From positions 608,001 through 672,000 of the forward strand of contig OY970364.1 in NCBI GenBank assembly GCA_963718565.1: 64,000 nt of DNA. The letters are read 5' to 3'. The notes below the pieces were generated by a model that made no database searches, was not told the origin of the DNA, and worked only from the letters and a program-made list of their open reading frames with translations. The translations under genes and the position numbers were made by a program. Shown one piece after another: positions 44,776 through 45,435 of the stretch (its first letter is position 1; each line of letters begins with the position of its first letter). This stretch comes from an uncultured Verrucomicrobiae bacterium (lineage in GTDB: Bacteria > Chlamydiota > Chlamydiia > Chlamydiales > Rhabdochlamydiaceae).

Positions 44776-45435
44776 TTGTTATACCGAAACAACATGAAGA
44801 ATCGAGCTTTTGGCAAAGCTGGCGCCCAGAGTTTGAACCAGCGAAGCGGCGCCGAAGCAGCACAACTTGAACAAGTTGTGCGATGCAGGCGGGATCAAAA
44901 TCTGGGATGTCCAGCGCAGCCAAAAGCCGATTCTTTGTGCTGTTTCGGTATAAAATCTCCTAAGATTACCTTATATAATTCTCAAAAAGACCTCCCTCTC
45001 TCACTTCCCAAAGTGAGAAATGCAGTCTTTTTTTTGCTCAGAGAATTGAAGATTTCTACCGATGAAATTATTATTCACTTTGTCTCCCCCAAAAAAATCT
45101 CCTCGTTACATAAAAAATTCTTTAACGACTCCTCCTTGACGGATTGCATTACTTTTCCCATCGATTCCCTCGGAACTCAGGAGCTTTTTCATCTTCTCGG
45201 TGAAGCCTTTATTTGCCCTAAAACTGCGATGGAATATTCTAAACATCACCGAAGTGATCCCCTCAAAGAACTCTATCGCTATGTTGTCCATTGTATTCTG
45301 CACCTCATCGGCTATGACGATGTCCGTGCTGATCAAAGAGCACGTATGAAAAGAAAAGAACGCACTTATCTAGAAAAGTTATACGATGCAGGATTTCTCC
45401 AGGAAACCAGTGCAAATAATCTAAAAACTCTTTGA
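44776..45435 (+). CDS. ybeY: rRNA maturation endoribonuclease YbeY with an in-frame 57-aa palindromic insertion
   Basis: TDCITF, LGEAFI and HCILHLIGYDD motifs; TTG start inferred 2 nt after the upstream stop. Confidence 0.88.
   Translation: MLYRNNMKNRAFGKAGAQSLNQRSGAEAAQLEQVVRCRRDQNLGCPAQPKADSLCCFGIKSPKITLYNSQKDLPLSLPKVRNAVFFLLRELKISTDEIIIHFVSPKKISSLHKKFFNDSSLTDCITFPIDSLGTQELFHLLGEAFICPKTAMEYSKHHRSDPLKELYRYVVHCILHLIGYDDVRADQRARMKRKERTYLEKLYDAGFLQETSANNLKTL
44780..44952. mobile_element. Full-length TATAC-end palindromic MITE (family B2), in frame in ybeY
   Basis: TIRs TATACCGAAACAACATGAAGAATCGAGCTTTTGGC / GCCAAAAGCCGATTCTTTGTGCTGTTTCGGTATA; TA duplicated; net insertion 171 bp. Confidence 0.92.

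Follow-up and report, generated by a model that had tools for sequence, protein, structure and literature searches.

The ybeY gene of an uncultured chlamydia-like bacterium (family Rhabdochlamydiaceae; deposited as Verrucomicrobiae, assembly GCA_963718565.1) carries a 173-bp palindromic element with TATAC...GTATA ends, inserted between codons 2 and 3 of the ancestral gene. Comparison with relatives, the repeat family to which the element belongs and the reading frame that runs through it make it very probable that this is a frame-keeping insertion of a MITE (a miniature transposable element with inverted repeats) into coding sequence. The overall best explanation, which we hold to be probable, is that the in-frame MITE provides YbeY with an element-encoded N-terminal tail. 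The genome consists of a single contig of 2,284,058 bp with 43.6% G+C (OY970364.1), of which positions 608001–672000 (64,000 nt) constitute the window analyzed here; positions given below refer to this window unless marked as genome positions.

An insertion private to one ybeY gene

Loci of 19 relatives (L002–L020), 16 from the same genus and three from other families, were compared with the ybeY locus of the present genome, and the element was absent from ybeY in all 19. Eighteen of the loci have an in-frame TTG, GTG or ATG one to three codons before the conserved KITLYNSQ sequence, directly after the stop codon of a small upstream open reading frame (ORF); in the exception, L011, the nearest ybeY start lies 16 codons upstream. 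TTG is the ybeY start codon in most relatives. The same arrangement is kept here, i.e. the stop codon TAG (44771–44773), the dinucleotide CC and TTG at 44776, with the element following TTG TTA. Two bases separate 'TTGx' from 'AAA' in the relatives, as opposed to 173 bp in this genome, and the net gain is therefore 171 bp. Excising TAC...GTATA in silico restores TTG TTA AAA TCT CCT AAG ATT ACC. An initial annotation, made from the sequence alone, had described an insertion at the TA of a TTAA site in ybeY that adds 57 codons in frame and free of stops; both the sequence and the empty loci of the relatives support this description, and the post-removal sequence and the peptides it had listed for the two orientations could be reproduced.

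ybeY was found in 28 of the 31 genomes searched. A separate search of all 18 other species of the genus recovered it in 16, and none of these 16 matches extends into the insert. Pfam YbeY (PF02130) matches the ORF with an E-value of 4.2e-24. An alignment with 17 relatives, from which L011 (start position) and L012 (internal stop) were omitted, revealed that this YbeY alone possesses an N-terminal extension of ~60 residues, with all 21 invariant core positions retained; H172 and H176 are invariant across the 18 aligned sequences. The orthologue alignment thus sides with the initial annotation, the insert being private to this genome and the conserved core intact. AlphaFold2, run on the 18-row alignment, modeled the YbeY core with confidence scores (pLDDT) above 90 and the insert with scores of 38–57 and one short helix. 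The N-terminal tail is accordingly predicted to form a floppy extension that leaves the nuclease fold intact.

The sequence across 44779–44953 reads TTATACCGAAACAAC...GTTTCGGTATAA. Nested arms run inward from the terminal arms (Table 1) to a perfect 10-nt central hairpin, the mini-hairpin that had been pointed out after GAAGC. Folded as RNA, the entire 173 nt form one hairpin of –96.2 kcal/mol, as compared to –48.5 ± 3.4 kcal/mol for 200 shuffled sequences (z –14.0), none of which was equally stable; as single-stranded DNA, the element folds with –58.6 kcal/mol (z –12.1). The frame of TTG 44776 stays open through the element into ybeY (ORF 44713..45435), and translation of the sequence in this frame yields the insert-encoded peptide LYRNNMKNRAFGK...DSLCCFGI followed by KSPKITLY. 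In the matching phase, the reverse orientation is likewise without a stop codon. Peptides from both orientations of four element lineages had no NCBIfam or Pfam match at E-values up to 10.

A hairpin consensus, derived from the ybeY copy and eight further copies (one each from eight other species), comprises 60 pairs, 29 of which show at least one double change that keeps the pair. As the aligned copies are separate insertions of diverging lineages, these pair-keeping changes speak for a constraint on propagation, by way of a DNA or RNA hairpin, rather than on single loci.

Table 1. Features of the ybeY locus and related element copies (window positions unless stated otherwise).
Feature	Position	Strand	Remarks
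ybeY reading frame including insert	44776..45435	+	219 codons plus stop; conserved core (KITLYNSQ) from 44962
Ancestral TTG start of ybeY	44776..44778	+	2 nt past TAG (44771-44773), with which the upstream small ORF ends
Conserved 53-codon ORF just upstream of ybeY	44612..44773	+	MTRHPSYGKSSK...GLPKTPVTP
A173-subfamily palindromic non-autonomous element, TATAC...GTATA	44780..44952	no strand	173 bp; net 171 bp = 57 codons
TA, left half of putative TA target duplication	44780..44781		right half at 44951-44952
Left terminal inverted-repeat arm	44779..44804	no strand	26 nt, 88% complementary to 44928-44953
Right terminal inverted-repeat arm	44928..44953	no strand	three substitutions private to the ybeY copy
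Central mini-hairpin GCACAACTTG-AA-CAAGTTGTGC	44860..44881	no strand	part of the family best conserved among species
In-frame ATG in left arm, conserved in the family	44794..44796	+	start of automatic gene call (213-aa YbeY)
In-frame TTG, located six codons short of the element's end	44935..44937	+	TCA in the other 11 copies; candidate new start
Tol170-lineage element in TolC	3939..4108	+	170 bp, net 168; just past signal peptide
Truncated Tol-type copy	339..437	-	~99 bp; in window
Sister-lineage copies	genome 26828, 119468, 1409584, 2254057, 2258521

A repeat superfamily and its distribution over reading frames

BLAST of the ybeY element against the genome returned nine full-length copies (91–100% identity), three longer variants carrying a 43-bp internal insertion and ~20 further copies of 76–79% identity. 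With this many copies in the genome, the element is a true repeat and a chance palindrome is excluded. A search with all TATAC...GTATA seeds returned 172 intervals after merging; once ~26–30 of these, which belong to an unrelated, nested 73-bp repeat, were discounted, the superfamily totaled ~140 copies and fragments. Both termini were present in 62 intervals, 21 more being flagged for imperfect termini, and two of the flagged intervals, added by hand (2020504 and 1918638), brought the set analyzed below to 64. The lineages have common ends and differing interiors: A173 (the ybeY type), B174, C174, D172, E164, F243 and a TolC type of 170 or 227 bp, the latter with a sister lineage of 171, 229 or 230 bp. 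The element within TolC has the same termini as the ybeY element and the same L-Y...G-I phase. The early view of the ybeY element as a second, sequence-distinct member of one TATAC...GTATA superfamily thereby agrees with the sequence, the arms and the TolC comparison.

TA is found at both ends of every full-length copy. At the site of the 170-bp element in a gene for a DUF455 protein, all five orthologues hold exactly 2 nt instead (TG, TT, TC, TA and TC); one TA is therefore part of the target, and each insertion adds the element length minus 2. The corresponding empty site in an FtsX-type permease gene was also considered as a test of TA duplication and proved unusable, its flanks being too diverged and the projection overlapping. 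In contigs from public soil DNA runs, other element copies part from the ybeY copy precisely at 44780. Terminal inverted repeats, a small size without a transposase gene, dispersed copies, TA duplication and presence or absence among relatives are all observed, as expected of a MITE.

Eleven copies of the A and TolC types run open, in frame, through long ORFs, nine of which have Pfam support: OEP/TolC, FtsX, TPS, DUF455, TsaE, MFS_1, Rce1-like/CPBP, MarC and YbeY. Many of the insertions are located at the extreme N-terminus, i.e. after codon 2 in ybeY and tsaE, after codons 4–5 in an MFS transporter and a secreted protein, and after the signal peptide in TolC. The copy in the FtsX-type permease is located mid-gene, with 396 and 300 codons on either side, and same-genus relatives match the query at ~10–397 and then at ~482–772, skipping the insert. 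Likewise, in the 10 relatives with matches to both halves of the DUF455 protein, these halves directly adjoin each other on the DNA (query 2–209/214, then 265/266–315) and omit the 56-residue insert. Within each lineage, the genic copies share one orientation (5/5 and 6/6; chance 0.002). The reverse orientation, though open, had no supported gene in the DNA-based catalogue of this genome. The initial annotation had pointed out that the frame is open in both orientations. As evidence for selection this is rejected; it is largely a by-product of palindromy, and the 11 genic copies use one orientation only.

Three E164 copies (genome 580127–580290, 980157–980320 and 1422883–1423046) are situated just before signal-peptide cores, with open frames; one of the three proteins concerned has a Sod_Fe domain, and the remaining two are likewise exported. 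In the Sod_Fe gene, translation seems more likely to begin at a start codon immediately following the element than to run through it.

Selection for element lengths divisible by three (3n) and for open frames had been proposed from the ybeY and TolC copies. Only 3n, stop-free lineages indeed persist in genes, and this part of the proposal stands. Its other part, a non-random distribution of lengths genome-wide to which the initial annotation had itself tied the idea, fails: net lengths modulo 3 across the 64 copies are distributed 23/25/16 (chi-square p 0.35), and the commonest lengths, 174 (18 copies) and 172 (11 copies), are both non-3n. About a third of the lineages are 3n, as chance predicts, and a design for 3n is not supported. 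Nor does the open frame exceed shuffled controls. For the ybeY element, 26% of dinucleotide shuffles are open in its phase and 11% in both orientations, and a null that keeps a perfect palindrome leaves 52% open, placing the single element within chance. B174 (11 copies) and D172 (13 copies) contain stops in all or nearly all frames, and the non-3n lineages remain intergenic.

The one strong result is that the location of a copy depends on its length class and openness. For 16 of the 23 3n copies, the frame continues without a stop through an ORF that has 100 or more flanking codons, as opposed to two of 41 non-3n copies (Fisher 6e-8). An excision test, which is independent of the element's own frame, placed 10/23 3n vs. 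2/41 non-3n copies far inside ORFs that span 150 codons or more (p 3e-4), and brought up a single candidate for a copy that acquired a stop inside a gene; 86.5% of random genome positions fall inside an ORF of that size class. On the simplest reading, coding regions act as a filter: elements insert at TA anywhere, insertions causing a frameshift or a stop are eliminated from genes, and 3n open lineages can stay.

Two further observations concern copies with disrupted frames. A non-3n C174 copy (genome 1156636–1156809; L184:837–1010) lies between ORFs of 147 codons (with a signal-peptide-like start) and 208 codons in different frames; its removal in silico fuses both into 355 codons, and this copy may split a gene. 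In the TolC-type sister lineage, all five copies (Table 1), which are solely intergenic, contain an additional base following '...VNLD', and the stops to which it leads are identical among them. Because these changes are common to all five, the frameshifted form must have spread, or have been homogenized, as a lineage.

As a side note, the unrelated ~73-bp repeat (TGGCTGCGAAGA...GAGCGAACCGGG) occurs at genome 1456–1528 and ~26–30 other places in both orientations, with none seen in the window, and is nested inside some B-type elements, e.g. at genome 1638408–1638698 and 2033245–2033535.

Start codon choice and proposed translation of the insert

No in-frame ATG, GTG or TTG is present from the element's end to GTG 45013. 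A start at this GTG would drop the first beta-strand, including the invariant Q70 and the nearly invariant N68 and D72. With no start codon after the element and before this strand, a working YbeY therefore has to start in or before the element. Three candidates remain, namely the ancestral TTG 44776, the family-conserved ATG 44794 and TTG 44935 near the element's right end.

The ancestral TTG is positioned 1 nt before the base of the hairpin, and no Shine-Dalgarno-like sequence was seen there, either in this genome or in relatives. The upstream ORF of 53 codons, which has no Pfam match, always precedes ybeY in relatives of several families, its stop codon being 1–6 nt before the ybeY start and its C-terminal coding sequence conserved in the relatives' DNA. 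This arrangement suggests that the 53-codon ORF and ybeY likely form a conserved translational coupling, in which TTG 44776 would be used by re-initiation of ribosomes arriving from the upstream ORF.

We envisage the following course of events. A TA-duplicating MITE, palindromic over its whole length, inserted at the TTAA formed by ybeY codons 2 and 3. As copies of its lineage lengthen a gene by exactly 171 bp and read without a stop in the xTA-TAC phase, ybeY stayed open and the insertion was kept. YbeY would now carry an element-encoded N-terminal tail, with a length of 57 residues for re-initiation at the ancestral TTG or of 51 residues for a start at the element's own ATG 44794. We infer both the choice of start codon and the actual synthesis of the tail peptide.

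Evidence for read-through comes from the comparison of copies inside and outside genes. The canonical frame is intact in 11/11 genic vs. 2/14 non-genic copies of the A and Tol lineages (Fisher 1.7e-5), which speaks for read-through of the genic copies, although this contrast is partly circular as a copy that gains a stop in a gene is no longer scored as genic. The frame was lost in six of the seven non-genic A-type copies, and the ybeY copy has kept both frame and 3n length; on these grounds, we consider translation of most of the element somewhat better than an even bet. Besides the circularity, several points weigh against an element-encoded tail. A hairpin of –96 kcal/mol, 2 nt past the ancestral start, could hinder initiation or elongation or invite RNase III; TTG 44935, found only in the ybeY copy, fits a new start downstream of most of the element, which would then not be translated; no other kind of insert is as easily tolerated in untranslated form as one at the N-terminus; and one open frame of 57 codons is not improbable (26% of shuffles).

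The alternative that fares best builds on the second of these points, with the element forming a 5′ leader, YbeY starting at TTG 44935 (MCCFGIKSPKIT...) with six element-derived residues, and the open frame upstream being a leftover. The change from TCA to TTG is private to the ybeY copy among 12 aligned, the ancestral ybeY start was likewise TTG, and open frames are frequent by chance at this composition. However, TTG 44935 is buried in the paired right arm and is not preceded by a Shine-Dalgarno-like sequence, the ybeY copy has kept its frame and 3n length unlike 6/7 non-genic A-type copies, and the automatic gene call selected ATG 44794, which is weak evidence. Taken together, we regard a start at TTG 44935 as unlikely, though deserving of serious consideration.

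Far less probable is that the insertion crippled ybeY, leaving a decaying gene that is either silent or makes a truncated product from GTG 45013. Such an outcome would be in keeping with the very stable hairpin at the start, with a genome rich in insertion sequences (~208 kb in repeats of at least 700 bp) and with at least one other element copy that appears to split an ORF, but the 160-codon core is intact, keeps its 21 invariant positions and is confidently folded, ybeY is present in 28/31 genomes searched, and the frame through the insert is preserved. That the element is a chance palindrome or was misplaced at ybeY during assembly is highly improbable: the assembly consists of one contig whose history is undocumented, and repeats can be misplaced, but a contig from a public soil run, which may stem from the source sample, covers 44841–44991 including the right junction with no differences, and, as with 63 further copies, the insert is clean, keeps the phase and has TA on both sides. 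Among the contigs (79–366 bases) from four public soil DNA runs, none bridges the whole element and no joints were seen. An in-frame MITE with an element-encoded tail on YbeY hence remains our preferred explanation.

Candidate mobilizer, relatives and known systems

The genome harbors 140 insertion-sequence segments of at least 700 bp (208 kb in total, ~9%) from at least ten families at ~100% identity; one such copy falls into the window (~27510–28776). The small palindromic elements, at 91–95% identity between copies, are older than these ~100% identical insertion sequences. Only one of the 11 repeat families of at least 700 bp whose ends were read combines TATAC...GTATA ends with TA flanks. 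This 1124-bp element, of which ~15 near-identical copies exist, encodes a 351-aa protein with DDE_3 and HTH domains (IS630 family by Pfam). IS630/Tc1 elements duplicate TA at their target. Beyond this, the similarity is slight: the left end of the 1124-bp element agrees with A-type ends at 17/30 bases, a value matched by ~4% of the genome's TATAC sites, and its right end agrees with the TolC and D types at 15–18/30 bases. Across 30 relatives, no association was observed between the element and an IS630-type transposase (both in seven, element alone in seven, transposase alone in six, neither in 10). A search for TATAC...GTATA pairs 400–6000 bp apart with similar ends recovered just pairs of small copies that are distinct elements, together with a tandem region of no relation to them. 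The IS630-family transposase is thus a candidate, as yet unproven, for having moved the palindromic elements, and the suggestion in the initial annotation that one mobilizing enzyme serves all subfamilies is equally unproven.

Element DNA was detected in 10 of 18 same-genus genomes and in four of 12 genomes from other families of the order. In five long ORFs chosen from relatives, four of which encode RecC, RNase R, PriA and a GreA-domain protein, a TolC-type element is present in the same phase; as these ORFs were picked from matches to a forward-peptide query, they are uninformative on orientation. A scan for the core motif, with one genome per prokaryote species, identified at least 108 stretches. 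Among the matches listed, every record is a metagenome-assembled genome with a Chlamydiae-type label (Chlamydiae, Chlamydiia, Chlamydiales, Parachlamydiales, Parachlamydiaceae, Rhabdochlamydiaceae or Simkaniaceae), the label Verrucomicrobia(e), a Candidatus name or the designation 'uncultured bacterium'. Searching a protein collection (longer proteins) with the insert peptide gave five matches, four of them from this genome.

Interspersed palindromes inside genes are best known from Rickettsia. According to the accessible parts of two reports, Rickettsia palindromic elements (RPEs) measure 100–150 bp, fall into ten families and in many cases sit in frame in unrelated genes (PMC10969869, PMC1779305). 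As far as the available descriptions of RPE-1 to RPE-10 go (Ogata et al. 2000/2002), the chlamydial elements resemble them in being interspersed palindromes (100–230 bp across both systems) of several families in an obligate intracellular host, with many copies in frame in unrelated housekeeping genes that gain a family-specific peptide, other copies intergenic, and lineage-specific proliferation. Unlike RPEs, they reside in a chlamydial host rather than in Rickettsiales, and family searches with their peptides detected no sequence relation; they also have defined TATAC...GTATA ends with TA duplication, a candidate IS630 partner and a strict single orientation in genes. The comparison is based on these peptide searches, and we assume that NCBIfam and Pfam hold RPE domain models. 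With no peptide family match and a host that is not Rickettsia, the elements are probably not members of an RPE family; they are an RPE-like coding palindrome family, here in the form of a TA-duplicating MITE superfamily of environmental chlamydiae.

In anatomy, with TA duplication, TATA-type ends and a long RNA hairpin, the chlamydial elements recall both Correia elements and MITEs derived from IS630. The Correia elements of Neisseria (CREE/NEMIS) are likewise MITEs, of ~100–200 bp. Presumably, they share with the chlamydial elements the TA duplication and ends beginning with TATA. They are, however, mostly intergenic or gene-disrupting and have inverted repeats at the termini only, whereas the chlamydial element is a palindrome over its whole length and some of its lineages are genic and in frame. 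Transcripts of Correia elements form long hairpins that are cut by RNase III, as stated in the accessible text of PMC10969869. With insertion sequences of the IS630/Tc1-mariner family and their MITEs, the TA target is common to both, but the ends match the transposon weakly past the first 5–6 bases. Intragenic ERIC elements and QMITE1 of Coxiella, to judge from the same accessible text (PMC10969869), are small palindromic repeats as well, capable of bearing open frames and producing in-frame fusions; they differ in sequence and hosts, and their in-frame copies are occasional as compared to a regular fraction of lineages here. Searches of the full-text literature accessible outside subscription papers and preprint supplements, together with passages of PMC2878342, PMC9997750, PMC13229535 and PMC3733652, turned up no account of elements of this kind in Chlamydiae.

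In-frame palindromic elements, long held to be a peculiarity of Rickettsia, are seen here in a second, unrelated obligate-intracellular lineage. Their transposon anatomy is clearer in this case, as they duplicate TA, possess defined ends and have a candidate IS630 partner that remains active in this genome. The contrast within one genome further offers natural evidence for coding regions as a filter, sister lineages with an extra base or fixed stops being solely intergenic. In practical terms, automatic gene prediction in these genomes will set start codons wrongly and produce unusual N-terminal extensions, e.g. for ybeY, tsaE, an MFS transporter and several signal peptides.

A bolder reading, which we put forward tentatively and think rather unlikely to hold in full, combines these threads. 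The elements would represent a chlamydial 'protein-coding palindrome' superfamily, unrelated in sequence to the Rickettsia elements, whose full-length hairpin is kept by selection and whose 3n stop-free lineages are translated inside the essential genes ybeY, tsaE, priA, recC and rnr. As part of this joint reading, and no more probable than it, the ybeY element would supply the start context, with synthesis depending on ribosomes from the upstream ORF that open the hairpin of –96 kcal/mol. If true, the ybeY element would be a mobile, structure-based translational coupling device.

ATP/ADP translocases are a hallmark of energy-parasitic intracellular bacteria. Four full-length genes for such translocases are encoded in the genome of this obligate-intracellular, chlamydia-like host. 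One of the full-length ATP/ADP translocase (TLC) genes is found in the window (59516–60916), as is a short TLC-like match on the minus strand (39803–40045). Lastly, a 141-aa protein of another organism (Pfam PF01809; 13,760-bp contig) contains a full-length in-frame copy that is 74% identical to the ybeY-type peptide.

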